From positions 1-9,891 of IMG/VR virus record IMGVR_UViG_2681813320_000006: DNA of 9,891 nucleotides; one strand, 5' to 3'. A program made the position numbers and the translations under genes. How positions within the stretch are numbered: position 1 is the first letter of the stretch; the number at the start of each line of letters is the position of its first letter. The DNA comes from a virus. Its lineage: Duplodnaviria; Heunggongvirae; Uroviricota; Caudoviricetes. This document shows, piece after piece, positions 1 to 9,891 of this stretch. Below the pieces are notes generated by a model that saw nothing but the letters and a program-made list of their open reading frames with translations, did not search any database and was not told where the DNA came from.

Positions 1-7
1 AAAAAAA

Positions 8-175
8 TCAAGCATTATGCAGGCTGTTTCTTTTTATCACCGGCCACAGCAATACCACAATGCCGCAGACCAGCACTCCATCCGCCAGCACCGACATGAT
101 CCTGCTGGTGAAATCCACCATCACCACCAGAAACAGCAGGAGTGCCACAGCGGCCAGACGCAGTTTTACCGTCAC
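8..175 (-). CDS. Possible small two-helix membrane protein (about 55 aa); could be holin-like, very uncertain
   Basis: Minus-strand ORF not in the supplied track. GTG at 175-173 overlaps the TerB-like stop (GTGA) with GGAG about 8 nt upstream; stop TGA at 10-8. Translation has two hydrophobic stretches (LRLAAVALLLFLVVMV, GVLVCGIVVLLWPVI). An internal ATG at 121 is an alternative start. The G/T-rich strand could produce hydrophobic codons by chance. Confidence 0.3.
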   Translation of the reverse strand: MTVKLRLAAVALLLFLVVMVDFTSRIMSVLADGVLVCGIVVLLWPVIKRNSLHNA

Positions 176-603
176 AGGTGGTTCTCCAGTCGCAGGCCAA
201 GAACACCAGCAATCTCTTCCAGAACCTTACGCTCTTCCGGCTCAATTTCACCATCTGCTTCAGCAATGGCCACCGCCACATCCAGCACATCTTCCGCTTC
301 ACGCGTATCGTGTTTCACATCTTCAATTTCACGCAACGCTGCACGACGACCAATTTTAAAATTGGTGTCAAGCTGACCTGTGATCGTGGCACTGATGGCA
401 TTAATTTCTGACGTAAATGCGGACAATGCTGGCTGGTTACGTAATACCTGTTCGATCTTCGCTTTCTCTGAAGTCTCACATTCACCATCTGCATAGGCCA
501 CCAGGTAGGCAGCATTAATAACCGCCTGTGCCAGATCGCGTTTCTCAAACTTTTTAATTTCAGTTGCTGCTCTGCGGGTTTTCTTTTTGAAGATTCCAAA
601 CAT
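172..603 (-). CDS. TerB-like (tellurite-resistance TerB family) domain protein, about 143 aa
   Basis: Track ORF 172..675 trimmed to the first ATG (603-601), which has AGGA 8 nt upstream; the track start at 675 is GTG. Acidic helical protein with AYLVAYADGE...AVAIAEADGEIEPEE pattern typical of TerB-like domains (recalled, not searched). Overlapping ORFs in other frames look non-coding. Confidence 0.65.
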   Translation of the reverse strand: MFGIFKKKTRRAATEIKKFEKRDLAQAVINAAYLVAYADGECETSEKAKIEQVLRNQPALSAFTSEINAISATITGQLDTNFKIGRRAALREIEDVKHDTREAEDVLDVAVAIAEADGEIEPEERKVLEEIAGVLGLRLENHL

Positions 604-734
604 CGTGACGTTCCTTTGGGTGGGTGAGCCAACGCCCGGGAGCGATCTGCCCACAGAGAAAGTCACACTGACCACTCCGTAAGCTCACCCCCGAAAGGCT
701 CTGTGGTTGATATGCGCCGGGCGTGGCGCAGATA

Positions 735-759
735 CAAAAAAGGCCCGCCGAAGCGAGCC
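735..759 (-). terminator. Rho-independent terminator downstream of the tRNA cluster
   Basis: On the minus strand: 7-bp stem GGCUCGC/GCGGGCC (one G-U pair) with UUCG tetraloop (759-742), followed by a 6-T run (741-736). The pairing is better on the minus-strand transcript than on the plus. Confidence 0.65.
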
Positions 760-772
760 TGGAAAATAAGTG

Positions 773-849
773 TGGCGCGTTGTAGTGGAGTCTAACCACT
801 GACCGATTGCTTAGAAGGCAATTGCTCTGTCCGACTGAGCTAACAACGC
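773..849 (-). tRNA. tRNA-Arg (anticodon UCU), phage-encoded, with an atypical T-loop
   Basis: Reverse complement folds as a 77-nt cloverleaf: acceptor GCGTTGT/ACAACGC, D-stem GCTC/GAGC, anticodon stem ATTGC/GCAAT with loop CTTCTAA, T-stem AGTGG/CCACT, discriminator G and CCA. The T-loop is TTAGACT instead of the usual TTCGAAT. Confidence 0.7.
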
Positions 850-929
850 ATGATGCTGATAATGGACCGCCACCGGGGACTCCGAATCTCGCACAGGGTG
901 ACGTTCTTTCCTGATGAGCTAGTGGCGGT

Positions 930-1005
930 TGGTGGCCCTTGCTGGATTTGAACCAGCGACCTGGCGATTATGAGTCACTCGCTCTCACCACTGAGCTAAA
1001 GGGCC
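930..1005 (-). tRNA. tRNA with CAU anticodon, most likely tRNA-Ile2 (lysidine type); tRNA-Met not excluded
   Basis: Reverse complement GGCCCTTTAGCTCAGTGGTGAGAGCGAGTGACTCATAATCGCCAGGTCGCTGGTTCAAATCCAGCAAGGGCCACCA folds as a 76-nt cloverleaf with 7-bp acceptor stem, T-loop TTCAAAT and anticodon loop CTCATAA. It closely resembles E. coli ileX/ileY as I recall them. Confidence 0.8.
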
Positions 1006-1045
1006 GATAACATAATGATAACGTTACAGAATAAATTCAGCAATA

Positions 1046-2104
1046 TCACTCTCTCTTTCTGATTAAATTCTGTACATCCCTTGCGGTCTGCTCAAAACGT
1101 CCGGTCTCCAGCTCAACGCCAATTGCACGACGCCCCAGTGCATTCGCTGCTTTGACTGTCGAACCGGACCCCATGAAGAAATCTGCAACCAGGTCTCCCG
1201 GACGACTGCTGGCGGTAATCATTTGCCGCAACATATCTGCCGGTTTTTCACAGGGATGTTTGCCCGGATAATACTGCACAGGCTTGTGCGTCCAGACATC
1301 CGTATAAGGAACGGCTGCCGATACGGAAAAATAACGCCGCAGTGATTTGTACTCTTCCAGCAGGCTGGCATACTGCCGGTTCAGCTCACTGTATGTGCTG
1401 ACCAGTTGGTGATGTGGCTTTTCCAGTTCACCCCGCTGATGTTTCTCTTCTGCCACCCGGGCAAACAGCACCTGAAGTTTTCTGTAATCATCCTCGTTCG
1501 GTAACTGCCACTGGCTGGCACTGAACCAGTGCGACACCATGTTTTTCTTTCCTGTGGCATCCACAATCTGTTTTGCCGTTATCCCCAGAGCAGCACGCGC
1601 ATCACGAAAGTAAGAAATCAGCGGGGCCATCACATGCTGTTTCAGTGCCCTGCCCTTCGCCTCATACCCGGCATCTTTCGGGCGATATGGCCCCTGGTAA
1701 TGTTCAGCAAACAGAACGCGCTCTGTGGCAGGAAAATATGCGCGCAGACGTTCTTTATTACACCCATTCCAACGTCCGGACGGCTTCGCCCAGATGATAT
1801 GGTTAAGCACGTTGAAACGTTCACGCATCATGATCTCAATATCAGATGCCAGGCGATGCCCACAGAACAGGTAAAGGCTTCCGGCAGGTTTTAACACCCG
1901 CCAGAACTGGGCCAGACAGTGGTCCAGCCACTTAAGGTAATCTTCGTCCCCTTTCCACTGATTGTCCCAACCGTTGGGTTTCACCTTGAAGTAAGGCGGA
2001 TCGGTAACAATCAGGTCAATGGAATCATCAGGCAGGGACTGAATAAAATGCAGGCAATCAGCGTTGATTAAATCAACACTGTTTATTTTTACAGTATTTT
2101 TCAT
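1046..2104 (-). CDS. DNA methyltransferase, beta class (N6-adenine or N4-cytosine), likely an orphan phage methylase
   Basis: 352-aa ORF with ATG start. N-terminal DPPY catalytic motif (LIVTDPPYF) precedes the C-terminal AdoMet-binding motif (FFMGSGST), the order diagnostic of beta-class amino-methyltransferases. No adjacent restriction endonuclease gene is visible. Confidence 0.9.
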   Translation of the reverse strand: MKNTVKINSVDLINADCLHFIQSLPDDSIDLIVTDPPYFKVKPNGWDNQWKGDEDYLKWLDHCLAQFWRVLKPAGSLYLFCGHRLASDIEIMMRERFNVLNHIIWAKPSGRWNGCNKERLRAYFPATERVLFAEHYQGPYRPKDAGYEAKGRALKQHVMAPLISYFRDARAALGITAKQIVDATGKKNMVSHWFSASQWQLPNEDDYRKLQVLFARVAEEKHQRGELEKPHHQLVSTYSELNRQYASLLEEYKSLRRYFSVSAAVPYTDVWTHKPVQYYPGKHPCEKPADMLRQMITASSRPGDLVADFFMGSGSTVKAANALGRRAIGVELETGRFEQTARDVQNLIRKRE

Positions 2105-2254
2105 GGATCAGTAAGCGTAACTCTGGTAGGCTCACTCTGCTTTTGCGCTAAAGCAGTGGGCCGTGGTTCGCTTGTGACCAGTAAGCATGAGCGAATGGCT
2201 GGCAGGTGCTACCAACACCCACCAGCCGCCCATTTTCACAGCAGGAAACCGCCA

Positions 2255-2458
2255 TTACTGGCAGCGTCTGAATTTATTCCCGTACCCGCCGTTATCCTTC
2301 GCCAGACCCGCCAGAACTAACTGAGTCAGTATTAACTGGCACTGGGCTTCGCTTACTCCGGTAGTTCTCGTCATCATGCGTGGCGTTACCCACTTGTCAG
2401 CAGGTAAGAAATGAAGGACTGCGGCGGCGGTTTCTGTCATATCTTGCTGTTTTATCAT
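2255..2458 (-). CDS. Hypothetical small protein (about 67 aa)
   Basis: Track ORF 2255..2482 trimmed to the second ATG (2458-2456), which has AGGGA about 8 nt upstream; the first ATG at 2482 has no Shine-Dalgarno. No recognisable motif. Confidence 0.45.
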   Translation of the reverse strand: MIKQQDMTETAAAVLHFLPADKWVTPRMMTRTTGVSEAQCQLILTQLVLAGLAKDNGGYGNKFRRCQ

Positions 2459-2580
2459 GTCTTTTTCCCTTCTGGTTAACATGACATACCAATAACTCTT
2501 GTCTAAAAAGCCAGCAAGATAAAAAGTCAGTATTCACGACCACCAGCGTGTTTACTGTACTGCACCAAGTTTACAGGTAC

Positions 2581-2606
2581 AAAAAACCGCTCGACGGCGG
2601 GTTTAA
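2581..2606 (-). terminator. Possible weak rho-independent terminator (candidate tR'-like late-region terminator)
   Basis: Minus strand: 4-bp all-GC stem CCGC/GCGG (2600-2597 with 2590-2587), 6-nt loop, then a 6-T run (2586-2581). The stem is short, so the call is marginal. Confidence 0.3.
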
Positions 2607-2736
2607 GCTGTGTGGCGAAGTAACCACTCTTAACAGATTAAGATAAAATTTGCGGACCGCGGTAATTTTTTTTGCTAAATTAAAGCCATATAAAAAATAA
2701 GCCCCATAAGAAATTATTAGCATACTAAGGTTTAGC

Positions 2737-3678
2737 ATGGCTACTATTGCGCAATCAAAGAAACAAAAAAAACTTAAAATTGGTTTTTACACCAGCAGTT
2801 CTGGGACTATCCGCAGCCATTCAGTTGCTAAGCAAGCAATTGAAAATCTGTATAATACTTGCGTAACCGTTACGAATAATCATTTTGATACCATCTATAG
2901 AAATAAAAAGTTAAAAATAGCTTTTATAAATAAAGATACAAAAGCTAAATATTTCTTCGGCTACATGTCATGCTCACGAGAAGAGTATCTCCTTCCTTAT
3001 ATTGGTGATGAACACTGGAATGAGCACAACATACCACTAGATGATAAAAAATACATAGTCGAAAGAACCTATTTTTTATATTATTACGATAGTGATATTT
3101 TAATATTAACTCAAAATCATCTTGGGCCGAAAGAATCGGATTTAGCTTATCTGCTTTACAGCCAGAGTGGTAATCCTGGAAATAACTTTGCATTCCAAGC
3201 CATCTGGAAAAAAGAGAGCGTCAAAGAGCTACTTGAAACAGGAAGTACTTTGAGAAGTTGTGATATTGTCCTGGCTGCTCCCAGGAACTTTGATGCAACA
3301 AATTACCAGCTAAATAGTTCATTTTCTAAGGAACTGGTAAATATGATGGTAGGGCTGGGTGGAACACGTCTCAAGTTAAATCTAAGGGGACGTGCATCAG
3401 GGAGAGTAAAAGTCAAAGGTTATTTATCAGATCTCGTTAAGGATGGTATTAAAGAACTCCTTGAAAAAATGCCGGGAATTGTAAAAAAAGCGGCAGTAAC
3501 ACAGCCCAAAAATACCGTTGAACAAAGTCTTCTTGATCAGGTACTCATTTCAGAAAAAAACATATATACCGTTAATGGTTATGGCACTGATAGTGATGTT
3601 CTGCAAGCCATGATTTCTGCTAAAATTGATAACAATGAATACCTTAAGCAATACGATATCAGCAAAAAGAAGGTATAG
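2737..3678 (+). CDS. Soluble 313-aa protein of unknown function; candidate sensor/activator of a two-gene phage-exclusion module (RexA-like by architecture)
   Basis: ATG at 2737 with TAAGG 6 nt upstream; stop TAG at 3676-3678. Strongly AT-rich (roughly one-third G+C by eye) with AAA/AAT/ATA-rich codon use, unlike the flanks. No Walker A, HNH or DPPY-type motifs seen. Same size class, gene order and N-terminal GFY motif as lambda RexA as I recall it. Confidence 0.8.
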   Translation: MATIAQSKKQKKLKIGFYTSSSGTIRSHSVAKQAIENLYNTCVTVTNNHFDTIYRNKKLKIAFINKDTKAKYFFGYMSCSREEYLLPYIGDEHWNEHNIPLDDKKYIVERTYFLYYYDSDILILTQNHLGPKESDLAYLLYSQSGNPGNNFAFQAIWKKESVKELLETGSTLRSCDIVLAAPRNFDATNYQLNSSFSKELVNMMVGLGGTRLKLNLRGRASGRVKVKGYLSDLVKDGIKELLEKMPGIVKKAAVTQPKNTVEQSLLDQVLISEKNIYTVNGYGTDSDVLQAMISAKIDNNEYLKQYDISKKKV

Positions 3679-3681
3679 GAT

Positions 3682-4125
3682 ATGTTATTGAAATACTTAA
3701 GAAACCTGATTGTAAGTGTTTTTTGCACCTTGTTCCTACTGAGGTATATCCCTCAGATGGGGCATGCTGACATACTTACAGCCTCCGGGGTTATTTCAAC
3801 TGTATCCGGTATTTTATTTGGTTTTATTTTAGCCACAATATCAATTTTTAGTGCTGCTAGCGAAAACTCAAATGGAATAATAAAAGCATTAAAAAACAAC
3901 AACATACTTCAAGTTATTATTGTAAATCTATTAACCGCAGGTGCATCTTTAATTACGGCATGCGTTATTGCTTTGATAGCAATGTTTGCCAATGAAAAGA
4001 CATTGTTACATGGAGAAAAAATAGAATTTATTTTAATTATCGAATCGTTATCTCTTCTTATCATTTCAGTAATAACTTTTGCCTTTACATGGAGAAAAGT
4101 AAACTGGATACTCCCCCACATTTAA
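3682..4125 (+). CDS. 147-aa integral membrane protein with four predicted transmembrane helices; candidate effector (RexB-like)
   Basis: ATG at 3682 with AAGAAGG 8 nt upstream, starting 4 bp after the upstream stop. Four hydrophobic segments (about residues 8-25, 30-58, 75-103, 114-138). The LFLLRYIP motif after helix 1 resembles lambda RexB LLFRHYIP as I recall it. Stop TAA at 4123-4125. Confidence 0.85.
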   Translation: MLLKYLRNLIVSVFCTLFLLRYIPQMGHADILTASGVISTVSGILFGFILATISIFSAASENSNGIIKALKNNNILQVIIVNLLTAGASLITACVIALIAMFANEKTLLHGEKIEFILIIESLSLLIISVITFAFTWRKVNWILPHI

Positions 4126-4148
4126 AAAGGGCAGAAATGCCCTTTTTT
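4124..4148. terminator. Bidirectional rho-independent terminator shared by the convergent cassette and the Q gene
   Basis: AAAAA-GGGCA-GAAA-TGCCC-TTTTTT: 5-bp stem (4129-4133 with 4138-4142), GAAA tetraloop, A-run on one side and T-run on the other, so it reads as hairpin plus U-tract on either strand. It sits between the cassette stop (4125) and the Q stop (4149). Confidence 0.6.
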
Positions 4149-4511
4149 CTACTCCATTTCAAGTTTAACATCCAGCATTGAAAGGCATCCATCAATAAAC
4201 CCTTCAGCCATCTGTATCTCTATACGTATCAATTTCTCATCTTTTTTGCGAGCTCTTGCAAGCTTTCTTTTCGAGATGCCATACAGGTAATGGGCCACAA
4301 TCAAAGAATGCTCGTACGGTTTTCGCTTTTTAAGAAGAGCAAGACAACCTTCAATAATTAATGCATCACTATCTGAACAAGCCTGACGTGTTTTGCTTGT
4401 ATAGGGAAGAAGCCCTTTAAACCCAGCAGCTATAGGAGAATAGTCTACTCCTGAACTATCACTCGCCGCCCATGCTCCCCAACGATCCAGAACCATTTGA
4501 ATATCACGCAT
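4149..4511 (-). CDS. Late-gene antitermination protein Q (short Q family, QuuD-like), about 120 aa
   Basis: Track ORF 4149..4526 trimmed to ATG at 4511-4509 (the track start is TTG), with GGAG about 8 nt upstream. N-terminus MRDIQMVLDRWGAWAA matches the E. coli DLP12 QuuD N-terminus as I recall it. Position after the replication module fits a Q gene. Confidence 0.75.
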   Translation of the reverse strand: MRDIQMVLDRWGAWAASDSSGVDYSPIAAGFKGLLPYTSKTRQACSDSDALIIEGCLALLKKRKPYEHSLIVAHYLYGISKRKLARARKKDEKLIRIEIQMAEGFIDGCLSMLDVKLEME

Positions 4512-4528
4512 CAACTTTCTCCACAAAA

Positions 4529-5524
4529 TCAGGCCAGCACGCCAATTGCCAGCGCGCGATCGATAAAACGAAATATCAGCTCCAGCTGGGAACCATACTT
4601 CTCTTCAAATGCCACGGTATCCGCATGCAGTTCGTCATGGTGTTTTCTGCACAAAGGCAACACAAAAAGGTCATGCGCTTTTGTACCCATACCACCCTGA
4701 CCATGACCAATCAGGTGATGAGGATCGTCGGCTGGCTTACCACAACATGCACACGGCTGCGTCTTAACCCAGCGCGTGTACTTTTCATTAACCCAGCGAC
4801 GACGTTTTGGGCGTAACATAAAAGACTCCGGCGACTCCGGATCCACTTTCAGCGCCAGCACCTTTTTCGCTTTATCCTGGATGATGCTGGTGGCAGGAAC
4901 CGAAGGCACAAGGTCACTTTCCCGGGTGACAGACGGCACAACAGGTTTCGGTAATCTCAGCGCCTTACGGGCTGCGCTTTCAGGTAAGGCATCCGCCAGG
5001 TCATTACGAATCAGCCACCAGCACAGTTCCGGCATTGTCACGGCATGGTTATCATCAAAACCGAGATCCCGACGGACTACAGACAACACCCAGCGGGCAC
5101 AGTTATCCGTTGCCATTGATTCCAGCCGTTCCGTGAACTGATCGCGCAGCTGGTTATCGCAGTGCCAGCACAGACGGATTGCGCCCGGAGCGTGTCGCAT
5201 TGTGGTCATGTTCTCGCTGTGCCAGTCGGAATGAGGCCACTGGCAGCCTTTTTCACGAAGTAACCAGCTTTCAAGACATTCCACTCCACCAGCACGACGA
5301 ATAACTGCCTCATTGCGGAACACGGCCCGAACGGCAGGATCATCCGCCAGCGGTTGTGATGCTGCCGGAACGGCACCGCTGGCGAAAGATGAATAACGTT
5401 CCGGCTCAGGCTCCAGCAGGACACGCCCCTGCATAAACAGGGGCATCAGCTCTGAACCGGGCCTGAACAATACAATCCCCATTCGCGGGGCAATTTCAGG
5501 AGTCAACAATGCTCTCACGGTCAC
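4529..5524 (-). CDS. DUF968-like prophage protein (YdfU-like) with a C-terminal Cys/His zinc-binding, HNH-like motif
   Basis: 331-aa ORF. C-terminus has CACCGKP...HHLIGHGQGGMGTKAHD...PLCRKHHDELH, a Cys/His cluster of the kind seen in DUF968/YdfU-type proteins. The track start at 5524 is GTG; a GTG at 5518 with GAGG upstream or an ATG at 5485 are alternatives, so the start is uncertain. Confidence 0.7.
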   Translation of the reverse strand: MTVRALLTPEIAPRMGIVLFRPGSELMPLFMQGRVLLEPEPERYSSFASGAVPAASQPLADDPAVRAVFRNEAVIRRAGGVECLESWLLREKGCQWPHSDWHSENMTTMRHAPGAIRLCWHCDNQLRDQFTERLESMATDNCARWVLSVVRRDLGFDDNHAVTMPELCWWLIRNDLADALPESAARKALRLPKPVVPSVTRESDLVPSVPATSIIQDKAKKVLALKVDPESPESFMLRPKRRRWVNEKYTRWVKTQPCACCGKPADDPHHLIGHGQGGMGTKAHDLFVLPLCRKHHDELHADTVAFEEKYGSQLELIFRFIDRALAIGVLA

Positions 5525-5569
5525 CTCAGCGAACGATATTGCATGAACACAGGAGAAAAAATTCAGCCA

Positions 5570-5827
5570 TCACGCAGTAAACTCCTTCACCAGAGTTTCA
5601 AACTGGCTTACCTTGCCTTCCAGTTCCGCCACGCAATCCACCAGCTCATCCACCGCCTTTTGTGTGCGGTGTTTTGCCTGCAGCAGATCACGAAGCGCCG
5701 GAGTAAGCTGCTTGCGGAGCGTATCCTTTGCCACGCTCATTTTTTCCATCTGTTCAGCACAACGAAGCATCTCCTGCGCCTGGCGACGAAGTTGTTCCGG
5801 TGAAACAGTGGCTGTTCTGTTATTCAA
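5570..5827 (-). CDS. Hypothetical small coiled-coil protein (85 aa)
   Basis: TTG start at 5827 overlaps the helicase stop (TTGA) with GGAG about 8 nt upstream, suggesting translational coupling. Charged helical sequence (EQLRRQAQEMLRCAEQMEKM...), no identifiable domain. Internal ATGs are alternative starts. Confidence 0.45.
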   Translation of the reverse strand: MNNRTATVSPEQLRRQAQEMLRCAEQMEKMSVAKDTLRKQLTPALRDLLQAKHRTQKAVDELVDCVAELEGKVSQFETLVKEFTA

Positions 5828-7224
5828 AATAAACGCTCCGCTTTACTGCCCGACATGCGGTTATTGCTGTATCTGCGCGGATTGCCCGGCGTCATGGGTG
5901 TGGAAAGCCCCCGGGCACTTTCCTGGTCCACAGGCAGAAAATGCCCGTTATGAAAACGTCGGTAAATGGTCCCGAGTGTGCCATTACGCTGTTTCGTGAT
6001 GTTGATTTCTGCTATGCCTCTCGCCTGTGTATCCGGGTTATACACCTCATCCCTGTAAAGCATCAGAATGATGTCGGCATCAGCCTCTATTTCCCCGGAG
6101 TTTTTCAGGTCTGAGTTCATGGGACGTTTATTGGGTCTGGATTCCACGCCGCGGGAGAGCTGGCTCAGAGCAATCAGCGGGAAACCGCCGGATTTTGCCA
6201 GGCTTTTAAGTCCCTTTGAGATTTCCCCCACCGCAAGGTCGTGACGCCCCGTGCTGCGGGTTTTAATCAGACCGAGGTAATCGACCACCACCAGCGCCGT
6301 TTCCGGATGCTTCATCCGGTGGTACCTCGTGGTTGCACATATCTCATCAATGGTCAGATTTGCCTGGTCCACCATCCAGATATTACGCCCCGTCATTCGT
6401 CCCACACCCTGTGAGAAACGTGCCCAGTCTTCGTCTTCAAAACGGGCAACAGACTTAAGACGGGATACCGGCATTCCCCCTGCTGCAGACACCATACGTT
6501 CACCAATCTGGATGTTCGCCATCTCCATGGTGAACAGAAGCACGCCATGCCCCTGCTCAGTCACCTTGTCGATGATGTCCAGCGCCAGTTCGGTTTTCCC
6601 CATCGAAGGACGAGCCGCAATGAATACCAGGTCGCCTGGCTCCATCCCCCCTGTTTTTGCGTCCAGTTCATCAATACCGGTCATCAGCGCCCTGGATTTC
6701 TCCAGTCCCTGATTCCGGCATTCAACACGGCCCACCACTTCCGGAAGGACATCATCAATGTGAACCGGCTGAATGACGCCCTTTCCGGTCGACAGTGAGG
6801 CCATCATGTTCTGCGCATCCTTCAGGGCATCTTCTGCCGCTTCGCAGGTATGTGCATCACGTAAATTCTGTAATGCTTCGGTCAGTGTTTTTTCTGCATC
6901 GCGCAGTACGGCATTTCGCCGCAGCGCTGCAACATAGTGCTCCAGTGAAGACTTCACCCAGGTTTTGCGCCCGGTGTCAGTAATCACCGGGGCAAGTTCC
7001 GGCATCTCATTGCACAGCAGCACGGGGTCAATGACGCCGGATACGCGGGCCTGTCTGCAAATCCCCGCGTAAATATCCCGGTACTGACGCACGAAAAATA
7101 CATCCGCCGGAAGCGTGGCCAGAATATCCATCACTTCCGGATCAGCCCCACGCAGAAAAAACGCGCCAATCACCGCACCTTCCAGGTCATCGTTACGCCA
7201 TGCCGGGTTGTTCTGGCTGGTCAT
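5824..7224 (-). CDS. Replicative DNA helicase, DnaB family (phage-encoded)
   Basis: 466-aa ORF with ATG at 7224 overlapping the upstream stop (ATGA). Walker A (ARPSMGKT), Walker B-like VVVDYLGL and DnaB-like downstream motifs (SGGFPLIALSQLSR). Size and N-terminal domain fit DnaB-type helicases such as P22 gp12. Confidence 0.92.
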   Translation of the reverse strand: MTSQNNPAWRNDDLEGAVIGAFFLRGADPEVMDILATLPADVFFVRQYRDIYAGICRQARVSGVIDPVLLCNEMPELAPVITDTGRKTWVKSSLEHYVAALRRNAVLRDAEKTLTEALQNLRDAHTCEAAEDALKDAQNMMASLSTGKGVIQPVHIDDVLPEVVGRVECRNQGLEKSRALMTGIDELDAKTGGMEPGDLVFIAARPSMGKTELALDIIDKVTEQGHGVLLFTMEMANIQIGERMVSAAGGMPVSRLKSVARFEDEDWARFSQGVGRMTGRNIWMVDQANLTIDEICATTRYHRMKHPETALVVVDYLGLIKTRSTGRHDLAVGEISKGLKSLAKSGGFPLIALSQLSRGVESRPNKRPMNSDLKNSGEIEADADIILMLYRDEVYNPDTQARGIAEINITKQRNGTLGTIYRRFHNGHFLPVDQESARGLSTPMTPGNPRRYSNNRMSGSKAERLF

Positions 7225-8099
7225 GCGGCAACACCTCCGATACGAGAACGGTAGCTGGGCCAGTTAAACGACAACCAGTTGCGCCCGCCATCGGTGATCC
7301 TGTCGGCAATCCGGGGACTGATGAACGCCCACAATTCTTCCGGTGAAAGGTTGCTGATCAAGATAGTTGGCAAAATACCCTCATACCGGGCATTGATAAT
7401 TTCCTGCAAAATGGCCATTTCAGCCGCACTGCCAAACTGAACGCCGACTTCGTCGATGATCAGCAAATCCAGTGACGCATAATGCTCAATGACGTCATCC
7501 GCTGTTTTTTCACTGTCATTCCGCCAGCAGTTTTTCACAGCACGGGTAAGGCGCATCACGTCGGTGATCTCCACACTGGCCAGATAGTTACGGATGATGT
7601 GTTTTGCCATTGATACCGCCAGATGATTTTTCCCGGTACCGCAACTGCCGGTCATAACAAGACTGGTACCGTTCTCCAGCATATCTGGCCAGTTCTCCAC
7701 ATAGCGGCGACAGGCCGCAAGATTTCTGGCTGCGTCAGGATTAACCTCCAGATAATTATCAAACTCGCAGTCCCGAAAACGCAGAGCAATTCCGGCGTTA
7801 TCAGTCAGTTCTTCCGCCTTGAGGGACGACAGCTCCATGGTCAAATCGTTGGCCTCAGCTATCAAGCAGTCAGGGCAGCATGAAATTTTTTCTCTGTCCT
7901 CGCCATTACGATCGCTCCACACCAGAATATGTGTGTGGTATTCGCCATGTTTTTCGCAACACCCGCGCCCTTCACGCATCCAGCAGGAACGATAAGGCCA
8001 TGGCTTTTCGCCCTTCTGAGCAAATGCAATCTCTGCCCGTAACTCATCCATCCGCGCCTGTAGTCTTGTTTGTTGTTCACGCAGGTTAAACGTCATCAT
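7221..8099 (-). CDS. DnaC/IstB-like AAA+ helicase loader with an N-terminal Cys-rich, probably zinc-binding, extension
   Basis: Walker A MTGSCGTGKNHLA and Walker B LLIIDEVG. Track start 8108 is GTG; the ATG at 8099 has GAGGTGA 5 nt upstream and is preferred. N-terminal region has CC...H.H...CCPDC cysteine/histidine clusters. Confidence 0.88.
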   Translation of the reverse strand: MMTFNLREQQTRLQARMDELRAEIAFAQKGEKPWPYRSCWMREGRGCCEKHGEYHTHILVWSDRNGEDREKISCCPDCLIAEANDLTMELSSLKAEELTDNAGIALRFRDCEFDNYLEVNPDAARNLAACRRYVENWPDMLENGTSLVMTGSCGTGKNHLAVSMAKHIIRNYLASVEITDVMRLTRAVKNCWRNDSEKTADDVIEHYASLDLLIIDEVGVQFGSAAEMAILQEIINARYEGILPTILISNLSPEELWAFISPRIADRITDGGRNWLSFNWPSYRSRIGGVAA

Positions 8100-8109
8100 C
8101 TCTGTCACC

Positions 8110-9018
8110 TCAGAATGTCAATTTGTCACTGGATTTACCGAATTTGTCAGACATGGCTCCCAGGCCAGCCAGGACATCGACCTGTCGCTGTCGCCCACCT
8201 CCGGGAGCAGATGGCTGTTGCCATGATTCGTCAAAGTGTCGATCGGGGCCAAAGAACGTCGACGCCTGCTTCACGAACTGAGTGCCGGTATTTCCTGAGA
8301 CACGCACCCAGGCGGCATAGCGTTTCACACCGTTGAGCATGGTTTCGGGTGTCACACCTTCCCTGATTCGGGCTTTCCAGGCTTTGAAGGCTGCTGACTT
8401 GGAATTACCACCAGCACGTTTGGGATATTCCTGCCAGGCCTGTTCAAATTCCGGTGAATATTCCTGTCGGGCAGAACGTGCTGGTGCAGACGCGTCAGCG
8501 GATGCGCCAATAGTGTTTTTACTCTCTGTAGTATTCTCTGAAGTAATCTCTGTTGTATTCTCTGTAAGATCGAAATTGGTTTTCCCTTCTCCGCGGCGAG
8601 GGGTTTCCCGTGTCCGCGGTGAAGGCTTTCCCTCCTCCGCGAAATTGGGTTTTACAGTTTCCCGAAAACGGGTTTCCCCATTTCGGGAAAACTGATTGTT
8701 TTCATTGATAATTTCATTAAGGCGCTCACAATCTATACGGTAGAACATTTTGTGCTCAAGACGCTTGTTGGTTTCAACCAAAATGCCTCTGGACACAAGA
8801 TGCTTACGCGCTACAGCCTGTTGTTCAAATGTAAGTCCTGTTTCGTGTTGTATCTCTTCACGCGTTTTATGTACGCCTTCCGCTGCATGTGCTTTATCCT
8901 GCCAGTAAAAAATCTGACCAAAGAAAATAACAGCGTGCGGACTTCCCATGTATTTAACGAGCCCAGGGTAATAAGCAACCGGATGTCCAAAATCGAGCAG
9001 AAGATCAGACGGACGCAT
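8110..9018 (-). CDS. Replication initiator (lambda O-like, origin-binding) with a repeat-encoded linker
   Basis: Track ORF 8110..9024 trimmed to ATG 9018 (GGAGGTG 5 nt upstream; the track start is GTG). The central protein region (TENTTEITSENTTESKNT, PRTRETPRRGEGKT) is encoded by DNA direct repeats, as in lambda O where the ori iterons lie inside the gene. It sits immediately upstream of the helicase-loader and helicase genes. Confidence 0.75.
   Translation of the reverse strand: MRPSDLLLDFGHPVAYYPGLVKYMGSPHAVIFFGQIFYWQDKAHAAEGVHKTREEIQHETGLTFEQQAVARKHLVSRGILVETNKRLEHKMFYRIDCERLNEIINENNQFSRNGETRFRETVKPNFAEEGKPSPRTRETPRRGEGKTNFDLTENTTEITSENTTESKNTIGASADASAPARSARQEYSPEFEQAWQEYPKRAGGNSKSAAFKAWKARIREGVTPETMLNGVKRYAAWVRVSGNTGTQFVKQASTFFGPDRHFDESWQQPSAPGGGRQRQVDVLAGLGAMSDKFGKSSDKLTF
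8523..8695. repeat. Iteron-like direct repeats inside the O-like gene (candidate replication origin) followed by an AT-rich stretch
   Basis: Four 12-bp tandem units containing TCTCTG (8523-8570). Five TTTCCC-containing units at 8581, 8603, 8627, 8658, 8673 (about 22-24 bp apart) with internal dyads such as CCCGAAAACGGG and TTTCGGGAAA. AT-rich segment at about 8690-8725. Confidence 0.6.
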
Positions 9019-9238
9019 AGCCACCTCCCAGGCGTTTAAACATTTTTCCGGACTGAAACGCCACCAGCGGATAACTCAGGGTATGAGTACGCCCCTGCAC
9101 CTGGCAGACAACCTTCTGACTTTCTGCATTGACCAGGCAAACCCGCAGAACGTGGCCGTTGCTGGTGGTGAACCACTGCCCCACACGGGGGCAACGGTTG
9201 TATCGGTGATACAGGGAATTAACGATGTAGCGGATCAT
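9005..9238 (-). CDS. Hypothetical small protein (77 aa)
   Basis: ATG at 9238 with GGAGGTG 5 nt upstream, overlapping the upstream stop (ATGA). Its 3' end overlaps the O-like start by 14 nt. No recognisable domain. Confidence 0.55.
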   Translation of the reverse strand: MIRYIVNSLYHRYNRCPRVGQWFTTSNGHVLRVCLVNAESQKVVCQVQGRTHTLSYPLVAFQSGKMFKRLGGGYASV

Positions 9239-9429
9239 GGACGCACCTCCGCCGTAGTTACGTATTTAACTGGGCTACCTTTCATTGAGATGGTTTCACA
9301 CATCCCTGCCGCTTTCAGTTCCGCCGTTTTTCTGGATTTATAGCGACGATGCCAGACAGATACATCCGTGCGAACTGATACATCGTTTCTGTATTCCGTA
9401 GTGGAGATGATGATTTCGTAACTAATCAT
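9235..9429 (-). CDS. Hypothetical small protein (64 aa)
   Basis: ATG at 9429 with AAGGAGGTG 5 nt upstream, overlapping the upstream stop (ATGA). Part of a translationally coupled chain of minus-strand genes. Confidence 0.5.
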   Translation of the reverse strand: MISYEIIISTTEYRNDVSVRTDVSVWHRRYKSRKTAELKAAGMCETISMKGSPVKYVTTAEVRP

Positions 9430-9731
9430 GGGTGCACCTCCTTGTCAGAACCATTCAGCCTGTAATCAACAAGTGCAGCACCAAAAACTGCATCACCTAC
9501 ACGGTCGTACAGTTTGCCAGCCAGCGGAGATTCAACGGCCTTAAGCATTGGATAAAGCTGGCTTGTCCAGATTTGGTGGATTTCTCGCAAATGCAGGTAT
9601 ACGCCTCTGGCGTTTTGTGCGACAGATGGCATATCAGCCGCACCAACTCCTGATAAGCACCTCTCCATCTGGTTAAAGGCATTGATGTATGCTTCTTTGA
9701 ACCGGGCAGCACGTTTACCCGTGAAACCCAT
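9426..9731 (-). CDS. C-terminal portion of a Rha-like (Phage_pRha-type) regulatory protein; N-terminal part appears interrupted or truncated
   Basis: The reading frame stays open upstream of ATG 9731 to a TAA at 9851-9849 and encodes ...SEYTDASGRKLPCYQITRDGFAFLAMGFTGKRAARFKEAYINAFNQME, which resembles the conserved core of Rha-family proteins as I recall it. No ATG/GTG/TTG start lies between that stop and 9731, and 9731 has no Shine-Dalgarno. Confidence 0.45.
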   Translation of the reverse strand: MGFTGKRAARFKEAYINAFNQMERCLSGVGAADMPSVAQNARGVYLHLREIHQIWTSQLYPMLKAVESPLAGKLYDRVGDAVFGAALVDYRLNGSDKEVHP

Positions 9732-9891
9732 AGCAAGAAACGCAAAACCGTCGCGGGTGATTTGGTAACAAGGGAGTTTGCGGCCTGATGCGTCGGTGTA
9801 TTCACTTAACAGTAAGCGTGCAGCAAGAACCGTATTGACGGGGATGTGTTATTCAGTCGGCAGTGCTACGCGCCAGGGGAGCAGTTCGCCG

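Follow-up and report, generated by a model that had tools for sequence, protein, structure and literature searches.

A lambdoid late switch with a RexAB-like cassette between the Q gene and its probable late promoter

Late promoters of related phages and the element in the window

According to the curated record of phage 21, the −35 element of the late promoter pR′ lies 6 bp past the stop codon of the Q antiterminator gene, a Q-binding element (QBE) lies between −35 and −10, and a pause element extends from +2 to +7; the whole unit of −35, QBE, −10, start and terminator measures 85 bp, and the terminator ends ∼50 nt from the start. The position of the Q21 QBE and its TGAGCA direct repeat have been reported (PMC6606751). 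For phage Sp5, whose 933W-type pR′ is the source of the StxS RNA, the pR′ start obtained by differential RNA sequencing (dRNA-seq) and the 3′ end of the terminator tR′ obtained by Term-seq are 257 nt apart (PMC7547250). Here we describe the late switch of a lambdoid prophage in IMG/VR virus record IMGVR_UViG_2681813320_000006, positions 1 to 9,891 of which (9,891 nucleotides, hereafter the window) were analysed. The Q gene is followed in it by a self-contained cargo at a recombination hotspot and then, 1.5 kb downstream of Q, by an element homologous to the mapped Sp5 promoter. It is very probable that this element is the cognate pR′ and that the switch is split but intact. The module consists of the following parts.

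4149-4511, minus strand: Q antiterminator gene, Q21/Q933W family (PF06530), with the conserved start MRDIQ at 4511 and the stop codon TAG at 4149-4151
4124-4147, both strands: bidirectional intrinsic terminator, stem GGGCA/TGCCC between an A-run and a T-run
3682-4125, plus strand: RexB-like membrane protein of 147 aa with four hydrophobic segments, directly 3′ of the RexA-like gene
2737-3678, plus strand: RexA-like protein (DUF6731) of 313 aa
2674-2736, plus strand: cargo upstream region, in which AAGG is the ribosome-binding site for the ATG at 2737 and TATAAA (2689-2694) the −10-like part of a candidate promoter divergent from pR′
2651-2673, minus strand: upstream half of pR′, made up of the A-tract 2666-2673, TTACC and CGCGGTCCGCA (2651-2661); the A/T tract 2647-2650 comes next
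2651-2661, minus strand: candidate QBE CGCGGTCCGCA, which contains the palindrome GCGGTCCGC at 2652-2660
2635-2640, minus strand: predicted −10 hexamer TAATCT, then GT, then TAAGAG at 2627-2632
2581-2626, minus strand: conserved initial transcribed region with a small hairpin at 2612-2627, and tR′ after it
2581-2601, minus strand: terminator tR′ (stem 2587-2601, T-run 2581-2586), conserved across loci

The Q protein matched Pfam Phage_antitermQ (PF06530) over profile positions 1-118 of 118 with an E-value of 5.2e-52 and thus belongs to this family; its open reading frame (ORF) can be extended to a TTG at 4526 (ORF 4149-4526), and its counterpart in phage cdtI is annotated as Q. Similarity to the solved Q21 protein (6JNX/6P18) is distant, as phmmer aligned residues 13-91 only (E 0.0018) and the DNA-binding helices lie outside the match. 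One base past the Q stop begins a hairpin, AAAAAAGGGCA-UUUC-UGCCCUUUUU (4124-4147), which folded with −13.4 kcal/mol on the plus strand (z −3.8) and −13.0 kcal/mol on the minus strand (z −3.0) and is followed by a U-run both ways (T6 on the plus strand, T5 on the minus strand), i.e. it has the sequence of a bidirectional intrinsic terminator. The consensus terminator scan did not pick it up, probably because its A/T flanks pair and make the stem longer. With the end of the second cassette gene at 4125, this hairpin serves both convergent units, which bears out an earlier note on this DNA that described the Q stop as directly adjoined by a terminator common to the convergent cassette. The same note had seen no late promoter adjoining Q, and rightly so: the motif CGCGGTCCGCA of the window's Q clade and the core TAAGAGTGGTTACTTCG each occur once in the window, both far off on the minus strand (2651-2661 and 2616-2632, respectively), so that the canonical placement of pR′ directly 3′ of Q, with the 6 bp to −35 of phage 21, is not found here. 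The minus-strand noncoding region 2483-2736, ∼1.5 kb off, in which the note had seen a terminator-like hairpin, indeed contains the stem 2587-2601 and T-run 2581-2586 of an intrinsic terminator shortly past the promoter.

A column profile of the element was drawn from a gap-free alignment of 57 unique sequences of the window's Q clade. On the Q strand it runs from the A-tract through yTAn, a near-invariant CGCGGTCCGCA, four positions that are always A/T and about six variable positions to the hexamer, after which come GT, a near-invariant TAAGAGTGGTTACTTCGCCAC and the terminator CCCGCCGTCGAGCGG with its T-run. The T, the A and the final T of the hexamer are conserved in 54-57 of the 57 sequences, with a variable interior (TAnnnT), and in a position weight matrix (PWM) scan of all unique sequences the hexamer was the best −10 position, scoring 2.9 bits on average and positive in every sequence. 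Homology of the element with cassette-free relatives ends at 2673. The phages SfV and Ayreon, which have a different Q family (250-aa Q), share the window sequence only from tR′ onward; the ∼70 bp 5′ of tR′ therefore travel with the Q type, as a promoter and Q-utilization (qut) module should.

The window element could be aligned without gaps with the Sp5/933W-type pR′, with the corresponding element of the Escherichia coli K-12 prophage DLP12 and with that of a Stx2a prophage (locus L004). Sp5 shares with it the palindrome, the A/T tract, the TAnnnT hexamer, the TAAGAGTGGTTAC core and the first terminator; it differs in that its palindrome TTTACGATCGTAAA overlaps the Q stop, no cargo being present, in having TACATT against TACTTC in the window, and in a second terminator 257 nt from the start. 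The Sp5 element at the Q stop reads TTTACGATCGTAAA, hexamer TATCAT, GA, TAAGAGTGGTTAC, first terminator. The sole terminator that fits the published distance is a hairpin with a T-run at 1098-1103 of the Sp5 locus (L216), which puts the start at L216 841-846, within TAAGAG, with the best fit at A846, 7 nt past the hexamer. Because the Sp5 start mapping and the PWM both point there, TAATCT was read as the −10 of the window promoter, with a predicted start at ∼2628, inside TAAGAG, and a predicted terminated RNA of ∼45-48 nt. A strong terminator-like hairpin was also seen in Sp5 at L216 866-896, ∼50 nt past the start; it is homologous to the window tR′ and is located upstream of the terminator by which the 258-nt StxS precursor is defined. 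The available passages of the StxS paper do not mention it (PMC7547250), and some transcripts must pass it.

The phage 21 unit resembles the window in its Q protein family (PF06530), in a promoter-to-terminator unit of ∼85-95 bp, in a QBE 5′ of the −10 and in a terminated RNA of ∼50 nt. In contrast, it begins 6 bp after the Q stop and not 1.48 kb away, its QBE is a direct repeat (ATTGAGCA, AATGAGCA) whereas the candidate QBE of the window is a 9-bp palindrome, and its perfect −35 and clear pause element, TAAGCT at +2 to +7, have no evident counterpart in the window. A layout as in phage 21 and lambda would result if the TAnnnT hexamer 2635-2640 were a sigma-dependent pause element and not a −10, with the promoter further upstream (a weak −35 in the A-tract and a weak −10, CAwwww) and the start at ∼2640. 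The block from A-tract to hexamer is 35 nt long and that from −35 to pause element in phage 21 is 36 nt, the palindrome stands to the hexamer as the downstream Q21 subsite stands to the pause element of phage 21, a good pause element is not seen elsewhere, and in an alignment of the initial transcribed regions (13/19 identical) TAAGAG falls on AACGAT, the pause element of lambda. This layout is nevertheless unlikely, as the PWM mean for the upstream promoter that it requires is near zero whereas the hexamer is the best −10 in all sequences, the putative −10 CAwwww has no conserved final T, and the mapped start of the collinear Sp5 promoter lies 7 nt past the hexamer. TAAGAG itself, considered as a pause element for its likeness to TAAGCT of phage 21 and from the alignment with the lambda transcribed region, was rejected since the predicted start falls within it. 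As to that alignment, the core TAAGAGTGGTTACTTCGC (window 2612-2632, minus strand) and the lambda pR′ initial transcribed region AACGATGGGTTAATTCGC (44587-44606; L094 188-207) align without gaps and span TTCG, a lambda RNA polymerase pause site, yet lambda Q belongs to an unrelated protein family.

DLP12 shows the gene order quuD-nmpC-[element]-essD, in which a convergent cargo, the porin gene nmpC (interrupted by IS5), is followed by the same core and terminator (element at L011 4688-4780) before the lysis genes. It differs from the window in a Q clade of ∼50% identity, in the palindrome TTTACGTACGTAAA, in the porin cargo, in a hairpin 33 nt past the Q stop and in being a defective prophage. 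Anchoring of the start site through a DLP12 reporter, whose '+1' we take to be an RpoE-dependent start, was tried and abandoned. The primers used (PMC7918800) put this '+1' ∼310 nt upstream of the element, and it gives no information on pR′. The position (L011 ∼4375) adjoins the start of nmpC, and transcripts from there still meet the tR′-like terminator at L011 4760-4780.

Some further features of the element deserve mention. The A-tract 2666-2673 occupies what is presumably the place of a proximal UP element. The small hairpin 2612-2627 showed weak base-pair covariation, with few register-shift compensations and mostly invariant pairs, and was not relied on. A plus-strand 'terminator' at 2650-2662 returned by the scan is the Q-binding palindrome and A-tract read backwards, with only −3 kcal/mol, and was discarded. 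An Rfam scan of 2300-4300 gave nothing relevant.

Pairing of Q clades with promoter palindromes

Two sets of loci were assembled, namely 80 IMG/VR loci retrieved by Q protein and 80 more retrieved by the conserved core regardless of Q. Clustering of the Q proteins used a threshold of 72% identity, and every cluster was then set against the sequence of 21 nt upstream of the A/T tract.

Qc0 (clade of the window), 97 locus records: site GCGGTCCGC
Qc1 (QuuD-like), 29 locus records: site TTTACGTACGTAAA or TTTACAATCGTAAA
Qc2, 12 locus records: site GCGTACGC
Qc3, 4 locus records: site TGTTATAACA
Qc4, single locus: site GCGGGCCGC
Qc5, single locus: site TGGAATTCCA
Qc6, single locus: site GCGCACGC

The seven Q clades thus each have their own site at one fixed position, while the downstream core and terminator are common to all; the Sp5 site TTTACGATCGTAAA is an additional one. 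Not a single mismatched pair of clade and site was found in the 147 locus records (a partly redundant set, see below), despite highly variable cargo between Q and site, and this pairing marks the site as an allele-specific candidate Q-binding element within the promoter. All clade sites are palindromes or near-palindromes, as opposed to the direct repeat of phage 21. The pattern is what a recognition pair predicts, so that Q probably binds the palindrome, and the symmetry of the sites (window 2651-2661; L011, L099, L102, L146, L163, L165, L216) suggests binding as a symmetric dimer. In the Q933W/QuuD branch the palindromes occupy the place of a −35 element.

The cargo between Q and pR′

The extent of the cargo was determined by pairwise blastn against two cassette-free loci with same-clade Q, L004 and L010, in which Q is followed by ∼215 bp of noncoding DNA and then by the same small ORF and methyltransferase as in the window. 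Window 2102-2673 corresponds to L004 3001-3568 and window 4153-4700 to L004 3590-4137; between the two flanks there are 21 bp in L004 and L010 but 1479 bp in the window. This additional DNA, 2674-4152, comprises the cargo upstream region, two genes, the terminator, and the final codon and stop of Q, and the distance from Q stop to conserved core grows from 27-46 nt in cassette-free relatives to 1514 nt. The earlier note's proposal that the cassette had inserted exactly between Q and its target promoter is thereby supported, the alignment to cassette-free prophages that it suggested placing the junctions at window 2673 and 4153. It had named two observations that would speak against it, a Q-utilization site and promoter elsewhere or the same Q-terminator junction in relatives without insertion; neither was made, because the promoter with its qut site lies inside 2483-2736, the region to which the note had pointed. 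In the cassette-free phages the Q frame runs into the promoter element, and its stop falls within the A-tract in L004, next to the palindrome in L091 and within the palindrome in Sp5, so that the last Q residues are changed when cargo inserts (131 aa to 125 aa).

The split proved to be widespread. The conserved core was found in 74 of the 80 Q-anchored IMG/VR loci, and in 72 of these 74 it is separated from the Q stop by 719-2249 nt, only L023 and L091 having 27-46 nt. The inserts fall into 28 sequence clusters and ∼15 protein-level types with a G+C content of 0.32-0.46, and the longest ORF of every cluster runs antisense to Q. The hairpin differs from one cargo type to the next and, in 23 of 25 representatives, starts at most 9 nt from the Q stop. 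Between the Q stop and the A-tract there is thus a hotspot with conserved flanks and many unrelated cargoes; since 72 of the 74 relatives and DLP12 share the split layout with varied cargo, it is not a one-off accident. The earlier statement that pR′ normally lies just downstream of Q consequently does not describe the norm for this Q clade, and the split arrangement is common and already present in well-known sequences (DLP12, phage cdtI).

Several cargoes matched known or candidate anti-phage genes, namely a KAP NTPase (PADLOC PDC-S20, E 4e-175), a PDC-S42-like protein, a TIR-TM protein (E 1.9e-57), an HNH nuclease domain similar to CBASS-type effectors, a NYN nuclease and an SDH-type protease. 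About half of the cargo types were without a match, and some cargo (the porin NmpC, a lipoprotein) does not, strictly speaking, count as defence. The loci L025, L026, L061, L075, L084 and L090 carry Pfam- and PADLOC-negative cargo (a 339-aa protein, a 379+142-aa pair, a 358+170-aa pair, a 267-aa protein and a 98+93-aa pair). Such unmatched cargo types are candidates for new prophage-borne functions.

Prophage defence hotspots of P2 and P4 likewise hold variable cargo within conserved flanks, part of which matches defence families, and taiEcA of phi80 is, like the cargo described here, antisense to phage transcription, but lies within the late operon. The slot differs from both in that it lies upstream of pR′, outside the Q-controlled operon and between a regulator gene and its DNA target. 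No description of the Q/pR′ junction as a hotspot was found in the literature searched, the coverage of which was incomplete and which is thus weak evidence of novelty.

As phage 21, Sp5 and three minor Q clades have Q and pR′ adjacent, insertion was taken as the derived state. The reverse, an ancestral state with cargo from which the cassette-free phages were derived by deletion, nothing having been inserted, would agree with the fact that most relatives carry cargo and only a handful of loci are cassette-free. It is quite improbable, given the adjacency in the wider family (6 bp in phage 21, a Q stop inside the palindrome in Sp5/933W, and the three minor clades) and the low G+C content of the cargo with its own terminator and upstream region; the presence of unrelated cargoes at the same two junctions argues for gain and exchange at a hotspot.

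In the window, the cargo (2674-4148, 1.48 kb) forms a self-contained unit antisense to Q, with its own upstream region, the RexA-like and RexB-like genes and its terminator, and G+C content is 0.29-0.41 over ∼2550-4200 including the two plus-strand genes as against ∼0.5 or higher in the flanks. The first gene encodes a protein of the RexA fold and adjoins one for a small multi-pass membrane partner, as in a RexAB-type pair; the four hydrophobic segments of the 147-aa protein are nearly co-positioned with those of lambda RexB (144 aa), with which it shows weak BLASTP similarity (E 0.012) in the same N-terminal register. Unlike lambda rexAB, the pair is located at the Q/pR′ junction, antisense, and not beside the repressor gene, and the similarity to RexA is not significant at sequence level. 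DUF6731 is spread across Enterobacterales and has no functional name, and literature searches on it, of incomplete coverage, found nothing; descriptions exist of just five RexAB-like systems according to a recent paper. The cargo would presumably be expressed in lysogens and defend against phage.

The upstream region 2674-2736 has no homology to cassette-free relatives. A weakly conserved opposite-strand TAnnnT was noticed ∼26 nt from the Q-binding palindrome in most cargo-bearing loci, across unrelated cargoes, and this hexamer (window 2689-2694, plus strand) may belong to a divergent promoter, back to back with pR′, that the cargoes have in common. At the other end, the terminator 4124-4147 is part of the cargo and not of the conserved flank, homology with cassette-free relatives restarting only at 4153. 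It would end the cargo transcript and block early rightward transcription that is not antiterminated from entering the cargo antisense. With an N-like antiterminator, early transcripts would pass it in lytic growth and could reduce cargo expression; a comparable effect has been proposed for the antisense tai gene in phi80.

Gene order and probable late control across the split

Other genes of the window, all on the minus strand, and a further terminator-like site are listed below.

8110-9024, minus strand: O-like replication gene
7221-8108, minus strand: DnaC-like gene
5824-7224, minus strand: DnaB gene
4529-5524, minus strand: DUF968 gene
2255-2482, minus strand: 75-aa ORF, first of the late transcription unit
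1046-2104, minus strand: N6/N4 DNA methyltransferase, late transcription unit
741-760: second terminator-like site, beyond the methyltransferase
172-675, minus strand: TerB-family gene

SfV, Ayreon, cdtI and L004 have the same order of 75-aa ORF and methyltransferase, followed there by lysis genes or by tRNAs and stx. Window 2100-4700 is 99.2% identical to phage cdtI (AB285204/NC_009514) over the full length of this 2.6 kb and 99.6% identical to a prophage in E. coli fS25a, and at least 80% of it is present in 25 of 5426 complete E. coli genomes. The parts 1-1045 and 5525-9891 are unlike cdtI, with a DnaB/DnaC-type replication module, and 3′ of the methyltransferase the window has the TerB-family gene whereas cdtI has lysis genes. 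As the flanks outside 2100-4700 differ, the Q-cargo-pR′ module has moved between different lambdoid backbones.

We propose that late control would work across the split as follows. Q would be made from the early rightward transcript, which without antitermination would end at the hairpin right after the Q stop. The protein would diffuse to the palindrome GCGGTCCGC in pR′ (2581-2673, minus strand), 1.5 kb downstream, and would there modify RNA polymerase, which would read through tR′ and on into the 75-aa ORF, then the methyltransferase and late genes. The cargo in between would fill the recombination hotspot at the Q/pR′ junction, where relatives hold other cargo types. Phage 1720a-02 has no cassette and carries the same element; deletion of its Q gene abolished Stx2 and phage production, and plasmid-borne Q raised Stx2 286-fold (PMC6328086). 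The Q-deletion primers of that study include the sequence of the element, and the 1720a-02 Q belongs to the same clade, with 74% identity to the window Q; by analogy, the window Q would antiterminate at its own pR′/tR′. Q proteins bind DNA, are free to diffuse and load at their binding element in pR′. Q thus acts in trans and its mechanism needs no adjacency of gene and site, so that the question raised by the earlier note, how late transcription could still be Q-controlled, ceases to be a puzzle. For lambda Q, a preference for action in cis was reported in the 1970s-80s, but a shift of 1.5 kb would be small on that scale.

The insertion might alternatively have uncoupled Q from the late genes, leaving a prophage that is cryptic or whose late genes are no longer under Q control. 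Q does end in a terminator with no promoter adjoining, and DLP12 with the same layout is defective. But the element is intact and strongly conserved in its cognate palindrome, −10 hexamer, core and tR′, a Q of this clade works from a plasmid in 1720a-02, and the split layout is the majority state (72 of 74 relatives), which is hard to square with lost function. Moreover, the module occurs at 99.2% identity in phage cdtI, the paper on which bears the title 'An inducible lambdoid prophage...', and the same layout of Q, convergent cargo gene, element and late genes is found in PhiR40_1, for which a complete phage genome with a named host has been deposited. Phages with the split layout thus appear viable, and uncoupling is very improbable indeed.

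Several points weigh against an intact switch with a RexAB-like cargo. The flanks of the prophage differ from those of cdtI, the phage described as inducible. The count of matched clade/site pairs is inflated by linkage and redundancy, near-duplicate loci being many and some contigs having been retrieved by both scans, and the covariation of Q and palindrome could partly reflect linkage and not recognition. The Sp5 start was located by its distance from the terminator, because PMC7547250 was based on an older version of the genome. The −35 region (yTAnCG at 19-bp spacing) is poor, and no convincing sigma-dependent pause element (TAnnnT) was seen downstream of the predicted start, TACTTC at 2617-2622 ending in C where Sp5 has TACATT, which leaves the Q-loading step unaccounted for. 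As regards the cargo, the alignment of DUF6731 with lambda RexA by hhalign was not significant (E 0.12), and PADLOC v2 gave no match for the two cargo proteins of the window.

A split but intact switch remains the reading that we favour, and late gene control here would then be conventional, its odd-looking junction being explained. A more far-reaching view, which we put forward tentatively and consider doubtful as a whole, is that the Q/pR′ junction of the Q933W/QuuD branch is a dedicated cargo hotspot (∼15 families, always antisense, with own terminators) and that Q may bind as a symmetric dimer and load on RNA polymerase at or very near the −10, and not at a separate downstream sigma-dependent pause element. 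If true, Q would load by a variant of the mechanism that lambda, 21 and 82 are known to use. The one-to-one pairs of Q clade and palindrome offer a candidate set of orthogonal antiterminators and sites, and may serve to predict which Q switches on which Stx or other toxin prophage. DUF6731 with its membrane partner would represent a widespread enterobacterial RexAB-type pair, and the slot between the Q stop and the pR′ A-tract, present in many enterobacterial lambdoid prophages, could be mined for anti-phage or lysogenic-conversion genes.

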